From NCBI GenBank assembly GCA_017415485.1, contig JAFQGP010000009.1, positions 9,305-73,304 of the forward strand: DNA of 64,000 nucleotides, written 5' to 3'. The translations under genes and the position numbers were made by a program. This document shows positions 10,991 through 63,252 of this stretch, piece by piece. Below the pieces are notes generated by a model. It was not told where the DNA came from, did no database searches, and worked only from the letters and a program-made list of their open reading frames with translations. The stretch comes from Clostridia bacterium (GTDB lineage: Bacteria; Bacillota; Clostridia; Oscillospirales; CAG-272). Every line of letters begins with the position of its first letter. Positions within the stretch are counted from its first letter, which is position 1.

Positions 10991-11050
10991 AGTGAAAAGA
11001 GGAAAGTGGACAGTGAAAAGTGAAGGAAAATTTTCGCTTTGCGAAAATTC
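10991..11050. repeat. heptamer-arm repeat (solo arm) plus GGAAAATTTTCGC hairpin
   Basis: AGTGAAAAGAGGAAAGTGGACAGTGAAAAGTGAAGG followed by the hairpin AAAATTTTCGC-TTT-GCGAAAATT. Fills the gap between the Zn-peptidase gene and fmt. Confidence 0.85.
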
Positions 11051-12018: not shown

Positions 12019-12235
12019 TTGCCTGCACGAAGCAAGCGGAAAGTTTTGGTCCACCTTTTTCAAAAGGTGGCAGAGCTCGAGACGGAGTCTCGAACTAATG
12101 CAAAAGCTTCAGCTTTTGCCACCGTGCTTTAAAATCACGAAGCTTGCTTCGGGATTTTGGACAGAGTCAATACTTCCCGACTGTAGGGAAGTATTGCGCT
12201 CTGTCACCCTGCGCCTGAAGGGCGCAAGTAATAGG
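12019..12235 (+). repeat. concatenated-hairpin repeat D1 (head GCGGAAAGTTTTGGTCCACC..., conserved ~95-nt module at 12118-12210)
   Basis: A chain of at least 6 stem-loops. Positions 12118-12210 are near-identical to 27937-28030. Confidence 0.9.
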
Positions 12236-12301
12236 TAAAAATCCGTGCCAAATTTTTATTTTATAATATTTCGCCTTGGCATTTGTTGTGTGCGAAAAAT
12301 T

Positions 12302-12350
12302 TCGCGCGGCGCTGACTGCCCACCCCAACCCCTCCCGCAAGCGGGAGGGG
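12302..12350 (+). repeat. CCCTCCC-GCAA-GGGAGGG hairpin repeat, copy C1
   Basis: TCGCGCGGCGCTGACTGCCCACCCCAACCCCTCCCGCAAGCGGGAGGGG. Same word and 5' flank as at 21656 and 63199. Confidence 0.9.
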
Positions 12351-12404
12351 CAGAGATAGTAGAAATCTCGTTGTTCGGTGTTCTGAACATAGTTCGTCAG
12401 GTTG

Positions 12405-12507
12405 GCGACCTCTGCGGAGGTCGCGTGATATATTCGCTTCGCGAATACGATATATCTTCGATACTATATGCCTGCGGCACGATATGTTCGCCGTTGGCGA
12501 ACGTGAT
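12405..12507. repeat. mini-hairpin array, GATAT-linker dialect
   Basis: gcgacctc-tgcg-gaggtcgc, then GTGATAT attcgc-ttc-gcgaat, ACGATAT atc-ttc-gat, ACTATAT gcc-tgc-ggc, ACGATAT gttcgcc-gtt-ggcgaac. The array abuts the def stop codon. Confidence 0.8.
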
Positions 12508-15570: not shown

Positions 15571-15635
15571 AAGTGTAAAGTGAAAAGTGGAAAGTGTAAA
15601 GTTAAGGTGAATTTCCGCCAAAGCGAAAATTTTCA
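15571..15635. repeat. heptamer-arm repeat (solo arm) plus GAATTTCCGCC..GCGAAAATTTTC hairpin
   Basis: AAGTGTAAAGTGAAAAGTGGAAAGTGTAAAGTTAAGG followed by an imperfect hairpin. Confidence 0.85.
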
Positions 15636-15651
15636 ATTAAATCAAACACCT

Positions 15652-15757
15652 ATTTAACTTCGCCGAAGGCGAACATTAACTCGGGCGCAGCCCGATCATA
15701 ACTCGGCGAAGCCGATATTAACTTGCGCGAAGCGCAAAATTAACTCGCCGAAGGCGA
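15652..15757 (-). repeat. mini-hairpin array, 5 units, TTAAC linker (inverse orientation of the GTTAA arrays)
   Basis: TTAAC/ATAAC starts at 15654, 15676, 15698, 15718 and 15740 (periods 22, 22, 20, 22). Units are ttcgcc-gaa-ggcgaa, tcgggc-gca-gcccga, tcggc-gaa-gccga, ttgcgc-gaa-gcgcaa and tcgcc-gaa-ggcga. Confidence 0.9.
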
Positions 15758-19122: not shown

Positions 19123-19272
19123 TTAAGTGTAAAGTGAAAAGTGGAAAGTGAAAAGTTGTGGTAACTTTTTTCGCTGCGCTCAAAAAGTATTTTTATAAAA
19201 ATGGAAATTCCCGAGCGTCCGCGAGGAAATTGTCCTTAACTTTACACTTTACGCTTTTCACTTTACACTTAC
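19122..19272. repeat. heptamer inverted-repeat element HIR-3 (both arms)
   Basis: Left arm GTTAAGTGTAAAGTGAAAAGTGGAAAGTGAAAAGTT (19122-19157). Right arm AACTTTACACTTTACGCTTTTCACTTTACACTTAC (19238-19272). The arms have a 7-bp periodicity. Confidence 0.9.
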
Positions 19273-19323: not shown

Positions 19324-20796
19324 ATGTCAAAGCCCAATATAATCTTAATAATGACCGATCAGCAGAGGTTTGATACTATCTCGGCACTCGGTAATGATAA
19401 GTACATAACGCCGAATCTCGACCGCTTGGCGCGGGAGGGTATGATCTTTGATAACTGTTTTTGCGTGTCGCCAACTTGTATGCCTTCGCGTGCGGCGCTG
19501 TTCAACTGCAAGTACCCGGGCAGAACGGGAGTTTACAGCAACAGCGACAGTTGGGAGCATTCCTGGGTCGAACAGCTTGCGGACGCGGGATATCATTGCA
19601 TAAACGTCGGAAAAATGCATACGTATCCTTATGATGCTCCTTGCGGATTCCATCAGAGATATGTTGTTGAGAACAAGGACCGCCGCTGCGATCAAATGGG
19701 ACTTGACAACAAATGCGGCCGCTTTGAGGACGAGCTTGACAAGTTCTTTTATTGGTCGGGGATGAAAAAGCCCGACAGAAAGTTCTTTGTTGAAAACTTC
19801 CCCGATTATCAGGACGCTGTCGGGTGCTTCACCTGGCCTTTTGAGGAAAAATTCCACCACGATGTCTTTGTCGGAGATATGGCTTTGCGCGTGATCGAGC
19901 ACAGAAAGACGGATGAACCCCTCTTTTTGCAGATCGGATTCCCCGGTCCGCACCCGCCCTTTGATCCGCCTCAGAGATTTATCGATATGTATGACGGCGT
20001 CGAATTTTCGGGCGAGATCATCAGCGCGGAGGAGGCAGACCGTCAGCCGAAGGCGCAGAGAATGTTCCGCGAAAGAGGAATGAAGCGCGGAATGGACGGC
20101 GTTGTCTGGCCTGCCGAGCCGACACCCGAGCAGATCAAGCGTATGCGCAAAAATTATGCCGCAAACGTGACGATGATCGACGAAAAGATCGGTCAGATAA
20201 TGGATTCGCTTCGTGAAAAAGGATACCTTGAGGACGCGATCGTCGTCTTCACCTCGGATCACGGCGAATGTCTCGGCGACCACAGACTTTTTGAAAAATG
20301 GTGTATGTATGATTGCATCACCCGCATCCCCGCGATCGTCTGGGGAAGCGAAAAGTACGTAAAATCTGGAGCACGAAGCGCGGAGCTTGTCGAGCAGTTC
20401 GACGTTATGCACACGGTGCTCGAAATGGCGGGGATCAAGCTCCCCGACGATTGCCAATCGATCTCTCTCGGTGCGTTCGACTCGGATATCAAGGGACGCG
20501 ACTGCGTTTTTGCCGAGCACGCCGTCGACCACGTCATGCGCGGCTGCGAGTTTATGACTATGGCAAGAACGAAGGACTACAAATTCGTTCACTACCAGAA
20601 CGAGGAGAGCGAGGACGAGCTTTACGACCTCGCAAGCGACCCCGAGGAGAGAGTCAACCTTTATCATAACGACCGCTACCACGCCGTCCGCGACAAGATG
20701 ATAATGCGAATGCTTGATTTCAAGTGTATGCACCATTATGGCGTTCCGGAGATCTATAAGGAATGCCTCAAGAACGAGCCGCCGGTGAAATTATAA
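19324..20796 (+). CDS. formylglycine-dependent sulfatase family protein
   Basis: IILIMTDQQR and SPTCMPSRAALF (C-x-P-x-R formylglycine motif). By eye the GC and codon usage are lower than in neighbouring genes. Confidence 0.9.
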   Translation: MSKPNIILIMTDQQRFDTISALGNDKYITPNLDRLAREGMIFDNCFCVSPTCMPSRAALFNCKYPGRTGVYSNSDSWEHSWVEQLADAGYHCINVGKMHTYPYDAPCGFHQRYVVENKDRRCDQMGLDNKCGRFEDELDKFFYWSGMKKPDRKFFVENFPDYQDAVGCFTWPFEEKFHHDVFVGDMALRVIEHRKTDEPLFLQIGFPGPHPPFDPPQRFIDMYDGVEFSGEIISAEEADRQPKAQRMFRERGMKRGMDGVVWPAEPTPEQIKRMRKNYAANVTMIDEKIGQIMDSLREKGYLEDAIVVFTSDHGECLGDHRLFEKWCMYDCITRIPAIVWGSEKYVKSGARSAELVEQFDVMHTVLEMAGIKLPDDCQSISLGAFDSDIKGRDCVFAEHAVDHVMRGCEFMTMARTKDYKFVHYQNEESEDELYDLASDPEERVNLYHNDRYHAVRDKMIMRMLDFKCMHHYGVPEIYKECLKNEPPVKL

Positions 20797-20936
20797 GTGT
20801 AGAGTGTAAAGTGAAAAGTGTAAAGTGGAGGAAACTTTTCGGCAAGCCGAAAAGTATAAATAATAAATGAAAATTTCCGAGCATAGCGAGGAAATTATCC
20901 TTAACTTTTCACTTTTCACTGTTCACTTTCCACTTC
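20795..20936. repeat. heptamer inverted-repeat element HIR-4 (both arms)
   Basis: Left arm 20795-20831 starts inside the sulfatase stop codon. Right arm CCTTAACTTTTCACTTTTCACTGTTCACTTTCCACTTC (20899-20936). Inner hairpins are ACTTTTCGG-CAAG-CCGAAAAGT and AATTTCC..GGAAATT. Confidence 0.9.
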
Positions 20937-20967
20937 TCAGACAAATATCTGTTTAAGGAGAAAGCAA

Positions 20968-21513: not shown

Positions 21514-21616
21514 AGTTAATGTCGGGCTTCGCCCGAGTTAAGATTGCCTGCGGCAAGTTAAGGTTCGCCTGCGGCGAAGTTGAAGGAGAATTTCCATCGC
21601 TTCGCTCGGAAATTTT
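21514..21616 (+). repeat. mini-hairpin array, GTTAA linker (3 units) plus GGAAATTT hairpin
   Basis: AGTTAAT gtcgggc-ttc-gcccgag, TTAAGA ttgcc-tgc-ggcaa, GTTAAGG ttcgcc-tgc-ggcgaa, GTTGAAG, then gagaatttcc..tcggaaattttc. Confidence 0.88.
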
Positions 21617-21655
21617 CGATTAAATTTCGCACTTGGTTACGTTTGGGCGAAAGAA

Positions 21656-21703
21656 CCTCGCGCGGCGCTCTATACCCTCCCAACCCTCCCGCAAGCGGGA
21701 GGG
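21656..21703 (+). repeat. CCCTCCC-GCAA-GGGAGGG hairpin repeat, copy C2
   Basis: CCTCGCGCGGCGCTCTATACCCTCCCAACCCTCCCGCAAGCGGGAGGG. Confidence 0.9.
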
Positions 21704-21850: not shown

Positions 21851-22036
21851 CAATTGCATAATACAATAAAAATCGTTTTTTCGGCGGCTTTGCCGACCGA
21901 AAAAACACCGCTAAGACGAGCAAAGCGAGTTCGCGCGCCGAGGGGAGCTGTCAAAATCGAAGATTTTGACAAGCGGCGATAAGCGCGCGTATCCCCGCCG
22001 AGCGGGTCTCAATTGTAAAACGCAGTTTTACAATTG
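21851..22036 (+). repeat. composite repeat B1 ending in the 27-bp perfect palindrome CAATTGTAAAACGCAGTTTTACAATTG
   Basis: Shares modules in the same order with 29073-29266, 49534-49709 and, inverted, 44385-44552: GTTTTTTCGGCGGCTTTGCCGACCGAAAAAAC, CCGAGGGGAGC, TCAAAATCGAAGATTTTGA, GGCGATAAGCGCGCG. The palindrome is at 22010-22036. Confidence 0.92.
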
Positions 22037-24980: not shown

Positions 24981-25141
24981 GCGGAAAGTTTTCGTCCACC
25001 TTTTTCAAAAGGTGGCGCCGTCAAGGGCGCGTAGCCCTTGCCGTCCTCCGCAGAGGACGGAACTCCCTTTTGCGCTTCGAAACGGAGGCGGGACGCCTCC
25101 GTTTCGGAAGGAGTAAAAACTCCCCCTTCGGGGAGTTTTTT
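24981..25141 (+). repeat. concatenated-hairpin repeat D3
   Basis: Head GCGGAAAGTTTTCGTCCACCTTTTTCAAAAGGTGG, then these hairpins: CAAGGGC..GCCCTTG, CCGTCCTC-CGCA-GAGGACGG, CGAAACGGAGGCG-GGA-CGCCTCCGTTTCG and AAAAACTCCCC-CTTC-GGGGAGTTTTT. Confidence 0.88.
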
Positions 25142-26419: not shown

Positions 26420-27694
26420 ATGAAACTGATTAATATGACCTCGGCTGAAAAGATAGCCTACATAATGACCAGACTTTACACAAACAAGCTGACCACCACC
26501 TCGGGCGGCAACCTTTCGATAATGGATGACGACGGTGTGATGTGGATCTCTCCCTCGGGCGTTGACAAGGCGCATCTGACCGCTGACGACATCATGTGGG
26601 TCACCCCCGACGGAGTCGTTCACGGCAAGCACCGCCCCTCGACCGAGTACCCCTTCCACCTTGCAGTTCTGCGCTCCCGCCCCGACCTCAAGGCGGTCTT
26701 CCACGCTCATCCCGCCGCTCTCGTCGCATACAGCCTTGAGAGAAAGCTCCCCAAGCTCGACGTTATGCCCGGCGTTTCGAAGCTTTGCGGCAAGATCGCT
26801 ATCGCAAAGTACGCGCTCCCTGGCTCGAAGCAGCTCGGTGACCTCATTGCGGAGAAGTTCGCAGAGGGTTGCGATACCGTTCTGCTTGAAAACCACGGCG
26901 TAGTTCTCGGCGCTGATAGCCTTGAAAGAGCATTTATGATGTTCGAGGCACTCGATTATGCCGCAAGAACCGGCGTTGCTGCCGCTATGCTCAAGAAGGA
27001 AGCAAAGGAGCTGACCGCAGAGGAGCTCGCAGTCAAGAATTCGCCCAAGGTATATGAGGCAGTTCTCGGTTCTGACAACGAAACCGCTATCCGCGAGGAA
27101 ATGACCGCAATGTGCGCTCGCTGCTGCCGCAACCGCATCTTCACAATGGGCGTCGGCGCGTTTGCAAAGAAGATCGAGGGTGGCTTCATCATCACTCCCG
27201 ATGACGAAGACCTTCTTGAACTCACCCCCGATATGCACGTCCGCGTTGAGGGTGATAAGTGCGAGGCGGGCAAGGTTCCTTCTCCCTTCGCAAAGATCGC
27301 GGGCGAGATCTTCGCCGCTCACGATGATATCGACAGCATCGCGTTTGCTCGCGCACCCTATATCATGGCGTTCGCCGTTACCGATGCGGAGTTCAACTCC
27401 CACCTCATCCCCGAGGGCTACATCTGCCTGCGCAACACCAACCGCCATCCTTACGGCACCATCGAGAACGCGCCCGAAAAGATCGTCGATTCGATCAGCA
27501 TCAAGGCTCCCATCGCGATCGTTGAAAACGACTGCGTGATCGTCGGCGGTACCTCGCTTCTCAATGCTTATGACCGCCTCGAAGTTCTCGAGTTCGGCGC
27601 AGAATCCCTCTGCGACATCGCGGCGATGAACGGAACGATTGTGCCGATCAGTCCGGAAGAGATCAGAGAGATTGAGGTTGCATTTAATCTGTAA
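26420..27694 (+). CDS. class II aldolase/adducin family protein, tandem two-domain form
   Basis: The first half carries GGNLS, SPSGV and FHAHP motifs. The second half (about aa 215-424) repeats the fold but lacks the His cluster. Confidence 0.82.
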   Translation: MKLINMTSAEKIAYIMTRLYTNKLTTTSGGNLSIMDDDGVMWISPSGVDKAHLTADDIMWVTPDGVVHGKHRPSTEYPFHLAVLRSRPDLKAVFHAHPAALVAYSLERKLPKLDVMPGVSKLCGKIAIAKYALPGSKQLGDLIAEKFAEGCDTVLLENHGVVLGADSLERAFMMFEALDYAARTGVAAAMLKKEAKELTAEELAVKNSPKVYEAVLGSDNETAIREEMTAMCARCCRNRIFTMGVGAFAKKIEGGFIITPDDEDLLELTPDMHVRVEGDKCEAGKVPSPFAKIAGEIFAAHDDIDSIAFARAPYIMAFAVTDAEFNSHLIPEGYICLRNTNRHPYGTIENAPEKIVDSISIKAPIAIVENDCVIVGGTSLLNAYDRLEVLEFGAESLCDIAAMNGTIVPISPEEIREIEVAFNL

Positions 27695-27806
27695 TTATCT
27701 CGCTTCGCGAGAGTTAAGATTGCGCTTCGCGCAAGTTAAGGTCGGCTTGCGCCGAGTTAATATCGCGCTTTGCGCGAGTTAAAATTCGCCTGCGGCGAAG
27801 TTAAAT
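27695..27806 (+). repeat. mini-hairpin array, 5 units, GTTAA linker
   Basis: Starts immediately after the stop codon. TTAA(G/T/A) at 27714, 27736, 27757, 27779 and 27801 (periods 22, 21, 22, 22). Units are tctcgc-ttc-gcgaga, ttgcgc-ttc-gcgcaa, tcggc-ttgc-gccga, tcgcgc-ttt-gcgcga and ttcgcc-tgc-ggcgaa. Confidence 0.92.
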
Positions 27807-27834: not shown

Positions 27835-28050
27835 GCGGAAAGTTTTGATCAAACTTTTTCAGAAAAGTATGTTTGCCTTCGGCAAACGGCGGAGTTTGAG
27901 GCGGAGCCTCATTTCAATGCGAGACCTTCAGGTCTCGCCACTGCGCTTCAAAATCACGAAGCTCCGCTTCGGGATTTTGGACAGAGTCAATACTTCCCGA
28001 TTGTAGGGAAGTATTGCGCTCTGTCACCCTCCGCGCGCAAGCGCGGATCG
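27835..28050 (+). repeat. concatenated-hairpin repeat D2 (conserved module 27937-28030)
   Basis: Head GCGGAAAGTTTTGATCAAACTTTTTC. The module GCCACTGCGCTTCAAAATCACGAAGC..GGACAGAGTCAATACTTCCCGATTGTAGGGAAGTATTGCGCTCTGTCACCCT matches 12118-12210. Confidence 0.9.
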
Positions 28051-29072: not shown

Positions 29073-29266
29073 GATTGTAAAAGTTTGAAATTACAATAAA
29101 TTTCGTTTTTTCGGCGGCTTTGCCGACCGAAAAAACACCTCTTTGACGAGCAAAGCGAGTCCGCGCGCCGAGGGGAGCCGTCAAAATCGCAGATTTTGGC
29201 GAGCGGCGATAAGCGCGCGTATCCCCGCCGCGCGGATCTCAATTGTAAAACGCAGTTTTACAATTG
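29073..29266 (+). repeat. composite repeat B2 (palindrome at 29240-29266)
   Basis: Same module order as B1. The palindrome ends 25 nt before the GDPD ATG. Confidence 0.92.
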
Positions 29267-29291: not shown

Positions 29292-30074
29292 ATGGCTATC
29301 AGATGGGAAGACGCAACAAGACAAAATATTCAGATCACCGCGCACAGAGGTATCAAGGATCTGATTCCCGAAAATACACTCCAGTCCTTCAAGGCGGCTC
29401 TCGACGCTCGCTGTGACGTTCTTGAATACGACGTTCACCTCAGCCGCGACAACGTGCCCGTAATTATGCACGACCAGACCGTCGAGCGCACCACCGACGG
29501 CTTTGGCGCGATCAGCTTTATGACCCTCGAAGAGATCAAAAAGCTCGACGCGGGTATCAAATTCGGCGAAGAATTCAAGGGCTACCGCGTGCCCACGCTC
29601 GAGGAAACTCTCGATCTTTTCGTCAGCTACGATTATAAGCCCCTGCACATCGTAGAGATCAAGGATTTCCGCCCCCAGTGCGTTGATATCATTGTCGAAA
29701 TGCTCCGCAAATACGACCTCGTCGAGCGCACCGTCATCGAGGCAGGCGACTGCCCCACGCTGAAATATCTTCAGGACTATTATCCCGAATTCAAGACTCT
29801 TTCCTTTATGCCCTATTCGATGAAGCGCCTTGACGAGTCGATCTACGACCGCCTCTACGGCGTTTCCCTTCCCGGCTCAAAGACCGACCCCGAAAGCGTC
29901 AAAAAGGTGCTCGACGGCGCCGATTTCGTTGAAGGCAAGGGACTCGTCCTCTTCCTTTCGGGCACGACCGAGGAGCAGATGGACAACGCCATCAACGCCC
30001 GCTGCGTAAACCTCACCACGAATAACCTTTATAAAGCGCAGGAGTATCTTGCGAAAAAGGGACTTAGAAAATAA
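29292..30074 (+). CDS. glycerophosphodiester phosphodiesterase family protein
   Basis: ITAHRG, ENTLQSF and EYDVHLSRDNVPVIMHD motifs. Confidence 0.88.
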   Translation: MAIRWEDATRQNIQITAHRGIKDLIPENTLQSFKAALDARCDVLEYDVHLSRDNVPVIMHDQTVERTTDGFGAISFMTLEEIKKLDAGIKFGEEFKGYRVPTLEETLDLFVSYDYKPLHIVEIKDFRPQCVDIIVEMLRKYDLVERTVIEAGDCPTLKYLQDYYPEFKTLSFMPYSMKRLDESIYDRLYGVSLPGSKTDPESVKKVLDGADFVEGKGLVLFLSGTTEEQMDNAINARCVNLTTNNLYKAQEYLAKKGLRK

Positions 30075-30379
30075 GTGATAAGTGGAAAGTGAAAAGTGTA
30101 AAGTTAAGGAAAATTTCCTCGCTTTGCTCGGAAATTAAAAATGATAATTTAATTCGGTATTGATGATCCATTATTAGGTGCGTCAATTCAATGCCTAAAC
30201 TAAAAAACTCGGATATTACGAAGATTTTTGCTTCATAATACTCGAGTTTTTCATTTACTTGTTATAGATTTGCATAGCACAAAGTTTTATCAACCCAGCA
30301 CAAAGTTATCGATATGAAATTTTCGCTTCAGAGAAAATTTTCCTTAACTTTCCACTTTTCACTTTCCACTTTTCACTTA
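30073..30379. repeat. heptamer inverted-repeat element HIR-5 (both arms, 230-bp core)
   Basis: The left arm (30073-30109) begins in the GDPD stop codon. The right arm (30342-30379) ends in the stop codon of the convergent isomerase gene. The core holds GGAAAATTTCC hairpins and a bidirectional terminator. Confidence 0.92.
30202..30251. terminator. bidirectional terminator-like hairpin (CTCGGATAT family)
   Basis: AAAAAACTCGGATATTA..TAATACTCGAGTTTTT, an imperfect stem with an A-run and a T-run on either side, between convergent genes. Confidence 0.55.
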
Positions 30380-32997: not shown

Positions 32998-33265
32998 GAA
33001 GTGGACAGTGGATGTAAAAGTGAACAGTGGTCAGTGGACAGTGAACAGAAAGATGCGGCTGATAATTTTGCTTGGTGCAAAGTGGGTTTGGGATTGCATA
33101 TAACTTAATTAATAAAGAAACCTCGGATATCAAGAAGCGTTAACTTCAAAATATCCGAGATTCCTGTAATTAAATTATCAGTCAATGCAATGGTTCAGTG
33201 ATGCAAATTAAATTATCAATTCGCATCTTTCTGTTCACTGTCCACTGACCACTGTTCACTTTTAC
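32998..33265. repeat. heptamer inverted-repeat element HIR-6 (GTGGACA/GTGAACA dialect, both arms)
   Basis: Left arm 32998-33057. Right arm 33222-33265, ending in the stop codon of SBP paralogue 2. The core carries the CTCGGATAT terminator. Confidence 0.9.
33112..33162 (-). terminator. intrinsic terminator of SBP paralogue 2 (CTCGGATAT family)
   Basis: Minus strand: TCTCGGATAT..ATATCCGAGG followed by TTTCTTT. Confidence 0.7.
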
Positions 33266-37218: not shown

Positions 37219-37368
37219 AAGTGAAAAGTGAAAAGTGAAGAGTGAAAAGTGAAAAGTTGAGGTGAACGGCTCTGACGGTTTTCCTTGGAAAACGGCGGTG
37301 TTCAGCCGCCGAGACAGAGTCGAAATTTGCCGAAGGCAAATACTTCCTCGCGGAGCTCGGAAATTTTC
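37219..37368. repeat. heptamer arm (GTGAAAA x5, solo) plus hairpin chain
   Basis: GTGAAAA GTGAAAA GTGAAGA GTGAAAA GTGAAAA GTTGAGG (37221-37262), then GGTTTTCC-TTGG-AAAACGG, GGCGGTGTTCAGCCGCC, TTTGCC-GAA-GGCAAA and CTCGGAAATTTTC. Confidence 0.88.
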
Positions 37369-44384: not shown

Positions 44385-44552
44385 CAATTGTAAAACTTCG
44401 TTTTACAATTGCCCCGCTCTGCGGGGATGCGCGCCATTATCGCCGCCGCCAAAATCGAAGATTTTGACGGCTCCCCTCGGCGCGCGGGCTCGCCTTGCTC
44501 GCCTAAAAGGTGTTTTTTCGGTCGGCAAAGCCGCCGAAAAAACTGATTTTCA
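44385..44552 (-). repeat. composite repeat B3 (inverted copy; palindrome CAATTGTAAAACTTCGTTTTACAATTG at 44385-44411)
   Basis: Reverse-complement module order of B1, B2 and B4. Starts 6 nt after the stop of paralogue 5. Confidence 0.9.
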
Positions 44553-48140: not shown

Positions 48141-48236
48141 AATTAGTAATTTTCGCCTTGGCGAAAATTTTCCTTCATTTTGCCGAAGGCAAACTATCAT
48201 TCTCGCGCAGCGAGATTATCATTCTCGCTTAGCGCG
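48141..48236 (-). repeat. mini-hairpin array, ATCATT linker (inverse of the AATGAT dialect), overlapping a CDS 3' end
   Basis: TTCATT/ATCATT at 48174, 48196 and 48218 (period 22). Units are attttcgcc-ttg-gcgaaaat, ttgcc-gaa-ggcaa, ctcgc-gca-gcgag and ctcgc-tta-gcg. Confidence 0.85.
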
Positions 48237-48661
48237 ACAGCAGTCTTTTGAGTAAGACTGTGCACAAGCATAATCGCCGTTACCGATTCCGCAATCGTCC
48301 GTGCGGCAAGATTGAGTGACACGGTAAGTGCTCCGCTTGAGTCGATTATTATCCACATTCCGCAGATCAGAAATACTGCGCAAGCCGCAAGAACCGAATA
48401 TCCCCAAAGCTTTGAAAGCGCGTGCGACCACAAAAGATTGAGAAGCAACGCCGTGAAAAGCAAAAGGCAGATGGTCAGGGACATCGAAAAATAGTCGAAG
48501 ATCAGGTAAATACCGCCCGAAAAGCCGCCGAGCATTTCTGTGTATTCGGGATCAGCTATCGTTCGCGCGACCTCGAAAAGGTGGTAGACGGCAAGTGCCG
48601 AGCCGAGCGCGGCGGGGATGACCGTCAGCCAGAATGCGAGGTGCGGATGCTTTTTTTGCAT
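48197..48661 (-). CDS. hypothetical multi-pass membrane protein
   Basis: About 4 TM helices. Its start shares one nt with the stop of the upstream hydrolase gene (TAATG). The last 12 codons (ALSENDNLAARE) are encoded by the hairpin array. Confidence 0.6.
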   Translation of the reverse strand: MQKKHPHLAFWLTVIPAALGSALAVYHLFEVARTIADPEYTEMLGGFSGGIYLIFDYFSMSLTICLLLFTALLLNLLWSHALSKLWGYSVLAACAVFLICGMWIIIDSSGALTVSLNLAARTIAESVTAIMLVHSLTQKTAVALSENDNLAARE

Positions 48662-49533: not shown

Positions 49534-49709
49534 CCGATTGTAAAAGCAAGCGAATATAATAAAATCCGTTTTTTCGGCGGCTTTGCTGACCGAAAAAACA
49601 CCTTTGGGGCGAGCAGGGCGAGCCCGCGCGCCGAGGGGAGCCGTAAAAATCGAAGATTTTTGCGGCGGCGATAAGCGCGCGTATCAATTGTAAAACGCAG
49701 TTTTACAAT
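49534..49709 (+). repeat. composite repeat B4 (palindrome at 49683-49709; CCCCGCC..GGG module deleted)
   Basis: Same order of modules as B1 and B2. Confidence 0.9.
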
Positions 49710-49787
49710 TGGCTTATTAATATGTAATAATTGTACCACTTTTCCGCGCCCTCTTCAAGGGGAAAAGCGAAATTTTTCAATAATCAC

Positions 49788-61457: not shown

Positions 61458-62462
61458 TCAGGAAATCAGTCGCTCGGCACGCTCGACGATGAGGGATCTT
61501 GCTTTTTCGAGTGTGGGAGCGCTGACGGTACATCCTGCCGCCTTGACGTGTCCGCCGCCGCCGAAATAGGCGCAGAGAGAGGAAACGTCTATGTTCGAGT
61601 TCGAGCGAGCCGAAACGCGGTAGCTCTTCTCGGCTTCCTCGCGGATCGAGAATGCGACCTCGACGCCCGCGACCGAGCGCGCGATGTCAATGAGGGCGTC
61701 AAGGTCCTCGCTTGCAAGGTTGTGCGCCGAGATCTGTTCAAGCGAGATCGAGCAGACGGCGATCTTGCCGCCACCTGCGAAACTGAGCAGATCGAGAGCC
61801 GCCTTTTCCGCCGCGAGTCTGCCGGGAGTCTTGGTTTCGAAAAGAAGACGGTCGATGTCGGAGTGCGAGGGGATGAGCGCGATCAGCTGTGCCGCGGTGC
61901 GGTGGGTGGCGGGGGTTACGTTCGAGTAACGGAAGCAACCCGTGTCCGAGCTGATAGCGGCGTAAATTGCGGGCGCGACACGTTCGGGGATCGCGTCGAT
62001 GTAGCCCATTCTGATCCATTCGCGCGCGATGCGCCAAACGATCTCGCCTGTTGCCGATGCCTCGGGGGAGAGATAGCGGTCGCAGAAGGGAGTCGAGCGC
62101 GCGTGATGGTCGAAGGAGAGTGCAATGTCGTATTTGCCCTCAAGCTGACCGAGCTGTGTTGCCGCCGCGATGTCGAGAGCGACAGCGGTGACCTTACCGG
62201 GAGCAAAATCCGAGGGGATCTTATCGAGCGTGATGTCGCCGTCGAGCCCCGCGCTTTCGGCAATGAAGCGAAGACGTGCGGGCAGGGGATCGGCGCAGAC
62301 CACGTGTGCGTTGCATCCGACCGCCGCAAGCAGGACTGCGGTGGCGTAAGCCGAGCCGATGCAGTCGCCGTCGGGGCGGGCGTGAACGAGGAGCGCAAGC
62401 TTGCCCTTGCGCGAAAGCTCATAGAGGTTTCGGCAGGCAGCCTTAAAGGTGAGATTGCGCAT
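61458..62462 (-). CDS. nrnA: DHH/DHHA1 phosphoesterase (NrnA-type oligoribonuclease/pAp phosphatase)
   Basis: HARPDGDCIGS, DHH (FDHHA) and GGGGH motifs, plus conserved position after rbfA. Confidence 0.85.
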   Translation of the reverse strand: MRNLTFKAACRNLYELSRKGKLALLVHARPDGDCIGSAYATAVLLAAVGCNAHVVCADPLPARLRFIAESAGLDGDITLDKIPSDFAPGKVTAVALDIAAATQLGQLEGKYDIALSFDHHARSTPFCDRYLSPEASATGEIVWRIAREWIRMGYIDAIPERVAPAIYAAISSDTGCFRYSNVTPATHRTAAQLIALIPSHSDIDRLLFETKTPGRLAAEKAALDLLSFAGGGKIAVCSISLEQISAHNLASEDLDALIDIARSVAGVEVAFSIREEAEKSYRVSARSNSNIDVSSLCAYFGGGGHVKAAGCTVSAPTLEKARSLIVERAERLIS

Positions 62463-62881
62463 TATTCGTCACCTTCTTCGCTCTTTTTTTCGGTGGTGAT
62501 ACCGAGCCTTGCGGCTCTTTCTGCGCTGTCGGTTTCAACTTTGTGGAGGAGGGAGGAGATATAAGCTCCGTTTGCACCCGATCGGTCAAGGATGAATGTG
62601 AGCTCTGGGGTCTGGCGGAGATCGACCGCGCGTGCAAGCGCACGGCGGATGTAGCCGTTGCTGGATCTGAGTCCTTCAGCGACCTTCTTTTCCTTTTCCT
62701 TATCGCCGTCGGCGCCAAGGAGGGAGTAGTATATCTTTGCGAATTTAAGATCGGGCGTAACGTCTGCACCCGTAATGCTTATAAAGGCGGAGCTGACTCT
62801 GGGGTCCTTGACCTCTCGGAGAATCTCCGAAAGCGCCTTTTGGACCTCATCGTTGATCCTGCCGCGTCTGTAGTTTGCCAT
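62462..62881 (-). CDS. rbfA: 30S ribosome-binding factor RbfA
   Basis: RRGRINDEVQKALSEILREVKDPRV..ITGADVTPDLKFAKIYYS. Confidence 0.92.
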   Translation of the reverse strand: MANYRRGRINDEVQKALSEILREVKDPRVSSAFISITGADVTPDLKFAKIYYSLLGADGDKEKEKKVAEGLRSSNGYIRRALARAVDLRQTPELTFILDRSGANGAYISSLLHKVETDSAERAARLGITTEKKSEEGDE

Positions 62882-63007
62882 TTCTTTTTCCTTCTATATA
62901 AAACTAATTTAATAACTAATAAAAGAGCATATTATTACTATTATAATATAACATAAATTAAGGAAAAAGTCAAGGGAAAAATATGAAATTTAGGTTACAT
63001 TGGGAAA

Positions 63008-63125
63008 AATGATTGTCTGCCTGCGGCAGAATGATGGTCACGCTGCGCGTGAATGATATCTGCCTGCGGCAGAATGATAATCACGCTTCGCGTGAATGAT
63101 AGTTCGCCCGATGGGCGAAATGAAG
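63008..63125 (+). repeat. mini-hairpin array, 5-6 units, AATGAT linker
   Basis: AATGAT at 63008, 63030, 63052, 63073 and 63095, and AATGAA at 63119 (periods 22, 22, 21, 22, 24). Units are tctgcc-tgc-ggcaga, tcacgc-tgc-gcgtga, tctgcc-tgc-ggcaga, tcacgc-ttc-gcgtga and ttcgccc-gat-gggcgaa. Confidence 0.92.
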
Positions 63126-63126
63126 G

Positions 63127-63152
63127 AAAAAATCCGCCGGCGGCGGATTTTC
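63127..63152 (-). terminator. intrinsic terminator (minus-strand sense) downstream of the 155-aa membrane-protein gene
   Basis: AAAAATCCGCC-GGC-GGCGGATTTT. On the minus strand it is followed by TTTTTT. Confidence 0.6.
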
Positions 63153-63198
63153 TCGGATTTATTATATTACGCTTTTGATGTTGTTTTGCAAAAGTATT

Positions 63199-63244
63199 TC
63201 GCGAAGCGCTGACTACCCTCCCAACCCTCCCGCAAGCGGGAGGG
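63199..63244 (+). repeat. CCCTCCC-GCAA-GGGAGGG hairpin repeat, copy C3
   Basis: TCGCGAAGCGCTGACTACCCTCCCAACCCTCCCGCAAGCGGGAGGG. Confidence 0.9.
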
Positions 63245-63252
63245 CTTTGTGG

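Follow-up and report, generated by a model that had tools for sequence, protein, structure and literature searches.

A mini-hairpin array upstream of rbfA in an uncultured gut clostridium and its apparent relationship to a dispersed, Gut-1-related family of intergenic repeats

The studied array lies within a 64-kb stretch of DNA that was analysed as a whole (hereafter the window), between the terminator of an upstream gene and the promoter of rbfA. Read along the minus strand, the locus begins with a gene for a 155-aa protein of an unassigned family (63720-63253), which is followed by a G-rich repeat, the terminator (63154-63126) and the leader TTCCTTCAT. Five hairpin units come next, and after them a 35-nt spacer, a promoter-like site, rbfA, a DHH phosphoesterase gene, recA and recX (Table 1).

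The array at 63008-63125 consists of five perfect hairpins with 6-7 bp stems and 3-nt loops, spaced at ~22 bp. Two stem sequences alternate, and the hairpins are linked by AATGAT words, the joining word being fixed and 7 letters long. The first-pass annotation had placed AATGAT at 63008, 63030, 63052, 63073 and 63095 and AATGAA at 63119, and these positions proved exact. The stems it had read were also correct, namely tctgcc-tgc-ggcaga (63016-63030 and 63059-63073), tcacgc-tgc-gcgtga (63038-63052), tcacgc-ttc-gcgtga (63081-63095) and ttcgccc-gat-gggcgaa (63103-63119). On the minus strand, units 1-2 with their linkers read TTCGCCC.ATC.GGGCGAA ctatcat TCACGC.GAA.GCGTGA ttatcat, and units 3-5 read TCTGCC.GCA.GGCAGA tatcat TCACGC.GCA.GCGTGA ccatcat TCTGCC.GCA.GGCAGA caatcatt. 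The leader preceding them resembles a Shine-Dalgarno or anti-Shine-Dalgarno sequence, and the word "ccttcat" was found at the head of 26 arrays.

Tandem Repeats Finder reported a period of 22 (3.3-3.8 copies) as well as a period of 43 (2.2 copies, 90% matches). The latter arises because unit 5 has been converted to the sequence of unit 3. The two-unit pattern gave 5 matches in the window vs 0 in 100 shuffles, and folding of the array region, compared with shuffled sequences, yielded z = -8.4 as DNA and z = -5.2 as RNA. The array is a real feature, and a chance pattern is excluded. Coding repeats were rejected as well, since 22 is not a multiple of 3.

Table 1. Positions of the array, its neighbours and the related arrays and arms of the window
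Feature	Position	Strand	Remarks
Hairpin array	63008..63119	-	minus is the G-free, GNA-loop strand; fold and sub-threshold Gut-1 match
Leader TTCCTTCAT (plus strand ATGAAGGAA)	63120..63128	-	CCTTCAT-type word; heads most arrays
Centre hairpin GAGAAAATCCGCC-GCC-GGCGGATTTTTTC	63126..63154	-	terminator-like on both strands
Promoter-like TTGACT-17-TATATT (with TG) for rbfA	62945..62973	-	35 nt past the outer end of the array; kept in L013 and L022
rbfA (ribosome-binding factor A)	62462..62881	-	PF02033; gene towards which the arm points
Sister array	48148..48236	+	ATCAT word and leader TTCCTTCAT as in the 63008 array
Partly degenerate ATATCGT/ATATCAC array	12405..12507	-	between def and fmt
TTAAC-word array, 5 units	15659..15757	+	opposite arm 15571-15602 consists of AAGTGNA heptamers
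TTAAC-word array, 3 units	21522..21578	-	
TTAAC-word array, 5 units	27698..27799	-	begins 3 nt past the stop codon of the aldolase gene (26420-27694)
Hairpin-less example	19125..19270	.	mirrored arms: (AAGTGAA)n, hairpins, CCTTAAC(TTTACAC)n
Other hairpin-less arms	10991-11024, 20795-20939 (20795/20904), 30073-30378 (30073/30347), 37219-37257		

In total, the window carries at least six hairpin arrays and about nine heptamer arms. Two relatives had been named in the first-pass annotation, and both were found to be real: the inverse-orientation counterpart (given there as 48141-48236), which has the ATCAT word on the opposite strand, and the "third dialect" at 12405-12507. Three arrays with TTAAC linkers and the related heptamer repeats were absent from that annotation. 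A convergent ORF (48197-48661) runs into the sister array, and its stop codon is a linker TGA. The spacer between def and fmt (12029-12507), which is normally short within an operon, extends over ~480 bp and is filled by an array, a G-rich repeat and several long hairpins.

The heptamers (AAGTGAA)n and (ACTTTCC)n form mirrored pairs around terminator-like hairpins and reach from stop codons to ribosome-binding sites (RBSs). Overall, we collected 38 heptamer arms. Like hairpin arms, they adjoin stop codons or RBSs; they are G-free on the outward strand and are preceded by the same hairpin-plus-CACCTTA leader as the hairpin arrays. In other MAGs, heptamer words (atttcac, acttcac) serve as linkers between hairpins. 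Because leader, placement and words are shared, an arm can be described as successive 7-nt words, any of which may or may not carry a mini-palindrome, and we interpret the (AAGTGAA)n repeats as the hairpin-less form of the same arms.

The comparison of arrays revealed a common module composed of a terminator-like hairpin, a leader of the CACCTTCAT type and an arm of 7-nt G-free words, each of which optionally carries a GC-rich perfect palindrome of 13-17 nt with a C(GNA)G loop. The arms extend outward from the hairpin and the CACCTTCAT leader to a gene boundary, so that the 3' end of the G-free strand adjoins the boundary. At the 5' end of the arrays we found the leader together with a terminator-like hairpin, AATTTCCGC..GCGGAAATT or AAAATCCGCC..GGCGGATTTT. 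According to our own codon-score gene calls, 66 of 95 arrays adjoin a convergent gene's stop codon (median distance 21 bp, many at 0-7 bp), and some ORFs extend 15-21 nt into the array and stop at a linker TGA. In the other 29 arrays, the boundary belongs to a co-directional gene and the array ends just upstream of the -35 box or directly before the RBS. Arrays paired across a centre hairpin were head-to-head in 11 cases and tail-to-tail in none; the genes on either side of such pairs may be convergent, co-directional or divergent. In the divergent case, some arrays precede the promoters of both genes (L087 and L015, for example). An orientation rule based on the replication strand was rejected, as the mirrored pairs contradict it.

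The two strands of an arm follow different rules. The inward strand is C-free, and TGA or TAA closes all three of its frames in 79 of 109 arrays vs 17 of 109 when the outward strand is read. Per 100 nt, there are 6.5 start triplets inward and 1.8 outward. Being G-free, the outward strand would be unable to hold a start codon or a Shine-Dalgarno site in its linkers.

On the strand with the GNA loops, the linkers contain 14 G in 2313 nt (0.6%), and 284 of 329 are exactly 7 nt long. Their words include NNATCAT, NTTAAC and ATATCAC, and their orientation is locked to that of the loops. Across 109 arrays, the loops read on the G-free strand and closed by C-G were GAA (191), GCA (97), GTA (27), GCAA (22) and GGA (2). 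Stems start with T(C/T), end with (G/A)A and are drawn from a small vocabulary (TCTCGC, TCCGCC, TCGCGC, TCGGC, TCTGCC, TCACGC and a few more). The first unit of an array is mostly TTTGCC or TTCGCC and stands after a leader (C/T)ACCTTCAT or CCTTAAC. Units of 20-24 bp are also common in the family.

For the pairing test, units were chosen solely by their identical flanking linkers, and pairing was not a criterion. Even so, 283 of 344 linker-defined units were perfect palindromes. The 145 distinct units of 15 nt had 98.3% of their cells paired vs 67% in shuffles, with 285 two-sided changes and G.U pairs in 4 of 870 cells. These statistics indicate that intrastrand pairing is strongly constrained and strictly Watson-Crick. 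A wobble test for the transcribed strand counted G.T 12 times vs A.C 7 times in 28 one-mismatch units and so showed no asymmetry, although such a test is weak for a family that is used both ways.

At its gathering thresholds, Rfam gave no match in the window. In a permissive search, positions 63029-63107 of the plus strand aligned to Gut-1 (RF01706) with 29 bits, the gathering threshold being 50 (E = 0.00056 when the 251-nt stretch was searched and 0.14 with the complete window); none of the other window arrays was listed in that search. The alignment is full-length (model positions 1-77) with three hairpins in register, and the word is AUGAUnn, not GUGAAAU. The 63008 array contains the three tandem hairpins and the repeated single-stranded purine-rich word by which Gut-1 is recognised. 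In 18 related loci, arrays with GTGAAAT or GTGATAT words gave 12 above-threshold matches of 50-69 bits, and MAGs with above-threshold Gut-1 arrays also hold ATCAT or ATCAC arrays. Continuity between the two is provided by these sister loci and by the linker words, which form a one-step series (tcatcat, tcatcac, tcataac, tcttaac). Moreover, Gut-1 seed sequences have the same mirrored arms and heptamer arms. The array is a diverged dialect or relative of the Gut-1 family and for this reason not new in kind.

An exact-pattern scan of one genome per species, for which our composition estimate predicted ~0.1 chance matches, returned at least 107 further stretches; its pattern restricted linkers to WTMRY, so the dialect counts and frequencies are biased. 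Among the matches listed, all come from uncultured MAGs of Clostridia, Eubacteriales, Ruminococcaceae, Oscillospiraceae or Acutalibacteraceae, most of them from the gut of yak, cattle, sheep, goat or deer and one from a Hadza human gut. Viral contigs gave 0 matches. The closest genome is MAG JAZSOQ01, with 93-96% identity.

At the rbfA locus itself, the array with its leader is 96.7% identical in MAG JAZSEA01, in which rbfA is only 85.3% and the next gene 83.0% identical. Together with the strong polarity towards gene boundaries, this difference points to selection and hence to some function, and the conservation of this particular copy argues that the array is more than junk. Stem variants leave the hairpins intact: JAZSOQ01 has TCGCGC/GCGCGA in place of TCACGC/GCGTGA, and TCTGCC.GCA.GGCAGA alternates with TCTGC.GCA.GCAGA among variants of the locus. 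The first-pass annotation had proposed looking for gain or loss of whole units at orthologous loci, and such an event was indeed found, as strains L005 and L008 are without a 44-bp two-unit block between identical TCACGC units. Contigs with the same rbfA (L003, L004, L007 and L010) stop 35-91 nt upstream of the gene, short of the array. Contigs that end beside arrays suggest that these repeats break short-read assemblies.

The same annotation held that every array uses a single linker word of its own and that a unit had been amplified locally on a shared structural template. The shared template was borne out. A single 5-nt core is indeed present in 75 of 109 arrays, but the words are shared across arrays: ATCAT, ATCAC, TTAAC and ATAAC turn up again in numerous arrays and genomes, so the words cannot be called array-specific. 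The similarity test it had proposed for units within arrays turned out as expected for linkers, whose cores are identical in 75% of within-array pairs vs 56% of pairs between arrays of the same genome, but not for stems, which are identical in 4.7% of pairs within vs 7.6% between arrays. Inside arrays, stem identity is 2.1% for adjacent units and 9.5% for units two apart. Since stems are less alike within arrays than between them, the arrays are not the result of local amplification of one unit; the gain and loss of 44-bp blocks does fit that proposal. Arrays also share the order of units, the conserved first unit (TTCGCC or TTTGCC) and the leader, which points to dispersal or conversion of whole arms.

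Turnover at orthologous sites is fast. Past the aldolase gene, four genomes have alignable arrays in which the linkers have changed in concert (GTTAAGA in the window, ATGATGA in JAZSOQ01 and GTGATAA in RGIG402). The array upstream of priA has TTAAC words in the window, whereas JAZSOQ01 and JAZSMP01 have ATCAT arrays with other units. In general, genomes that are 93-95% identical may carry different arrays or linker words at orthologous sites. Preferred words also differ by genome: JAZQJB01 uses ATCAT throughout, RGIG402 mostly ATCAC, and the window, JAZSLM01 and JAZSEA01 mix ATCAT with TTAAC.

Several other repeats were noticed in the intergenic regions. A ~55-nt repeat, tttcgcg..gcgctgac..CCCTCCCAACCCTCCCGCAAGCGGGAGGG, has three copies in the window (12296-12352, 21655-21703 and 63198-63247), each near a hairpin array. 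Its hairpin has an 8-bp stem and a CAAG/CUUG loop; its opposite strand, GGGAGGGTTGGGAGGG, has four G3 tracts and is a G-quadruplex-like motif. Many metatranscriptome contigs match only this piece. A conserved element of ~130 nt is present in four copies (21900-22036, 29130-29266, 44385-44520 on the minus strand and 49600-49711). It contains CAAAATC-GNA-GATTTTG and a terminal hairpin with a 12-bp stem, CAATTGTAAAAC-GCA-GTTTTACAATTG; an RBS-like sequence follows within about 20 nt of at least two copies (22036 and 29266), and the copy at 21900-22036 overlaps the called start of a Sigma70_r2 gene (21966). It had no Rfam match and could be a leader RNA or another repeat.

A MITE-like element (33000-33260 in the window, 2380-2870 in L041) has inverted heptamer arms, (AGTGGAC)n and (GTCCACT)n, around a core of 180-420 bp; in JAZSOQ01, a copy of it lies between def and fmt in place of the array that the window carries at 12405-12507. 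Finally, a module starting with AGCGGAAAGTTTT follows the terminator at many loci and lies at 12036-12120, 24981-25060 and 27835-27870 of the window. It continues as CCACCTTTT-TC-AAAAGGTGG in two of the window copies and as GATCAAACTTTTTC in the third; at many related loci it is followed by a CTTAAGGC..GCCTTAAG hairpin. In this Clostridia clade, several repeat families together make a mosaic of the intergenic DNA.

We propose, with a probability of roughly 0.5, that the array belongs, as one arm, to a dispersed and fast-evolving family of intergenic repeats that is related to Gut-1, resembles REP/BIME and BOX elements and is confined to a lineage of uncultured, Oscillospirales-like gut Clostridia. 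Spread and homogenisation of such a family would take place at the level of DNA. Blocks of 22 or 44 bp would be gained or lost when identical units slip or exchange unequally, conversion or replacement by other copies would shift the linker words in concert, and hairpin-templated correction could keep the palindromes perfect. At gene boundaries, an arm may persist because its inward strand shuts all three frames, its outward strand would not start translation, and the module brings its own terminator. At the rbfA locus, the arm would fill the space between terminator and promoter, probably as a passive insulator or spacer under local purifying selection. Several points speak against the DNA-level reading. 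No mobilising enzyme was seen among 10 flanking proteins scanned, and neither a target-site duplication nor an empty site was found. The signs of selection at the rbfA locus, the near absence of GGA loops, the rating of Gut-1 as certainly RNA by its describers (PMC2864571) and the restricted linker words of the scan pattern also weigh against it. It should be stressed that strict Watson-Crick pairing would also result from selection on RNA if the arrays are transcribed both ways, as they appear to be (69% vs 31%).

Selection on RNA is central to the explanation that we consider possible yet clearly less probable than the dispersed repeat family, namely that the arrays are cis-acting modules of untranslated regions (UTRs). 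As part of the neighbouring mRNA, a string of hairpins joined by unstructured linkers would guard the end of the transcript from exonucleases, inward arms acting in 3' UTRs and outward ones in 5' UTRs. Such a string could also keep the ribosome at a distance from the terminator, or hide or expose the Shine-Dalgarno-like leader (AAGGUG / CACCUU). This would agree with the position of most arrays, which have a stop codon on one side and a terminator-like hairpin on the other or else immediately precede an RBS, with the strong covariation, with the conservation of the rbfA locus array and with the presence of array units from other loci in metatranscriptome contigs, and Gut-1 has been rated a genuine RNA (PMC2864571). 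A UTR role is harder to reconcile with arrays that stand upstream of both divergent promoters, and the 63008 array itself is located between a terminator and a promoter. RNA contigs, undirected and possibly with some DNA among them, extend over both rbfA and the gene upstream but leave 62892-63059 uncovered. Furthermore, G.U pairs are nearly absent, arrays are replaced at orthologous sites of near-identical genomes, and hairpin-less heptamer arms occupy the same positions. A cis-acting RNA role may nonetheless coexist with propagation at the DNA level, as for REP elements.

A bolder idea, which we regard as unlikely, is that the 7-nt word with its mini-palindrome is a self-contained unit written or recognised by a hypothetical hairpin-specific enzyme or RNA-binding factor whose specificity co-evolves with the word and would thus give rise to genome-wide dialects. 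If this were true, Gut-1-type arrays would be the product of a new DNA-mobility or RNA-marking system that defines gene boundaries in a lineage of gut Clostridia.

Somewhat more doubtful still is the 22-nt unit as a minimal mobile element, inserted next to its own word by a hypothetical enzyme that acts on single-stranded DNA hairpins (HUH or Y1-transposase-like) in the manner of REP/RAYT. Arrays would then grow unit by unit, and co-evolution of word and enzyme would produce genome-specific dialects. Such growth could account for conserved linkers combined with stems that vary within a small vocabulary common to arrays, for neighbouring units that are rarely identical and for dialects that differ by genome in a one-step series. 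In addition, the first linker-like word often contains the stop codon, there are heptamer arms that lack hairpins, and the loops are of the GNA type known from stable DNA mini-hairpins. On the other hand, no candidate enzyme was seen among the 10 flanking proteins scanned, all of which are housekeeping proteins (fmt, def, priA, a sigma factor, aldolase, flavin reductase and murA among them). Position-specific first and last units and the shared unit order fit movement of whole arms better, and in convergent pairs the arrays are mirrored about the centre hairpin irrespective of how replication proceeds.

An independent small RNA gene on the plus strand, ended by the hairpin within 63126-63154 (63129-63151), seems very improbable. 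Rfam types Gut-1 as an sRNA, the locus is conserved, and a terminator-like hairpin does follow the array on the plus strand; yet upstream of the array we found no convincing plus-strand promoter, and most family members begin 0-7 nt past a stop codon, which leaves no room for one. The many copies per genome, their variable numbers of units and the lack of RNA contig cover on the 63008 array also oppose an sRNA gene. Iteron-like binding sites for a dimeric protein on duplex DNA, two helical turns apart, would suit the ~22 bp period, the palindromic units and the promoter-adjacent position, but are scarcely credible, as the inner stem positions vary freely and always complementarily, which is the signature of intrastrand pairing and not of conserved half-sites, and units of 20-24 bp and hairpin-less arms are common.

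Two classes of known arrays were also rejected. CRISPR arrays have repeats of 23-50 bp, unique spacers of similar length and cas genes; here, only 7 nt are constant, and what varies is a self-complementary 13-17-mer from a small vocabulary. The ToxI-like arrays of type III toxin-antitoxin systems are single arrays with 34-48-nt repeats that immediately precede a gene for an endoribonuclease toxin, and the present family has 22-nt units, many loci and housekeeping neighbours.

Gut-1, listed in Rfam as an orphan "sRNA" from 2010 onwards, thereby gains hosts: uncultured, Oscillospirales-like Clostridia that live in the guts of ruminants and humans. It also gains a much wider family with many dialects and hairpin-less heptamers, an architecture and strand rules (outward strand G-free, inward strand C-free and stop-rich). 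The breadth of the family, its hosts, architecture and strand rules appear to be previously undescribed. They raise a question that can be tested: by what means is a repeat with strictly Watson-Crick pairing, locked orientation and concerted evolution kept at most gene boundaries of a genome? In practical terms, pipelines that use Rfam thresholds will overlook most of the arrays, which also seem to break metagenome assemblies.

Among the known systems, BOX elements of Streptococcus pneumoniae consist of a fixed head, variable tandem middle units and a fixed tail and are intergenic and strongly folded. The array family is similarly modular, intergenic and strongly folded. BOX units, however, are 45-59 bp long and conserved in sequence, without the grammar of a heptamer plus a mini-palindrome. 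The heptamer arms can be compared with the STRR repeats of cyanobacteria, tandem 7-nt intergenic words often found just upstream of start codons, which differ in having no inserted palindromes and no described mirrored, hairpin-centred layout. The TAACTGA repeats (PMC4679880) are like the heptamer arms as tandem 7-nt intergenic words, often just upstream of start codons, and differ from them in the same two respects.

The C(GNA)G triloop of d(GCGNAGC) DNA mini-hairpins (PMC13037366) is the loop of almost all array units on one strand. These mini-hairpins are extraordinarily stable, in the order A > G > C > T, which puts d(GCGGAGC) in second place according to the physical chemistry of isolated hairpins (PMC13037366). 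With GGA in 2 of about 400 loops, loop choice in the arrays is not simply set by DNA hairpin stability.

REP, BIME and REPIN elements are likewise high-copy short extragenic palindromes at gene ends, genome-specific and arranged in variable clusters, and roles in termination and mRNA stability have been proposed for REP elements (PMC2817692, PMC3733652, PMC3116915). The counts in the window and the 66 of 95 arrays next to stop codons show high-copy extragenic palindromes at gene ends in our family, too. REP elements have a GTAG or CGTC tag, a mostly alternating orientation, a conserved stem and a link to RAYT transposases (PMC3733652, PMC2817692), whereas the arrays have a 7-nt G-free tag, direct-repeat units and stems that vary with compensation, and are not known to be linked to a RAYT. 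No GTAG or CGTC tag (PMC3733652) flanks the palindromes, the words being NNATCAT, NNATCAC or NTTAAC.

The closest likeness is with Gut-1. In the literature on tandem hairpin repeats, REP elements in Clostridia and mini-hairpins, we found the grammar of the array described only for this motif, which is known from 43 examples, exclusively in human gut metagenomes, and was filed as a non-coding RNA without organism or function (PMC2864571). Its describers (Weinberg et al. 2010) considered it certainly RNA (PMC2864571). Like the array, Gut-1 has three or more tandem short GC-rich hairpins and a fixed C-free word, which in Gut-1 is (G)UGAAAU. Both are gut-derived, and the Gut-1 grammar is the array grammar read on the C-free strand. 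The array differs in its word, AUGAU(A/G)(A/G), and in scoring below the Gut-1 cut-off, and Gut-1 has been described as an sRNA of three hairpins, not as a multi-dialect repeat of variable length tied to gene boundaries.
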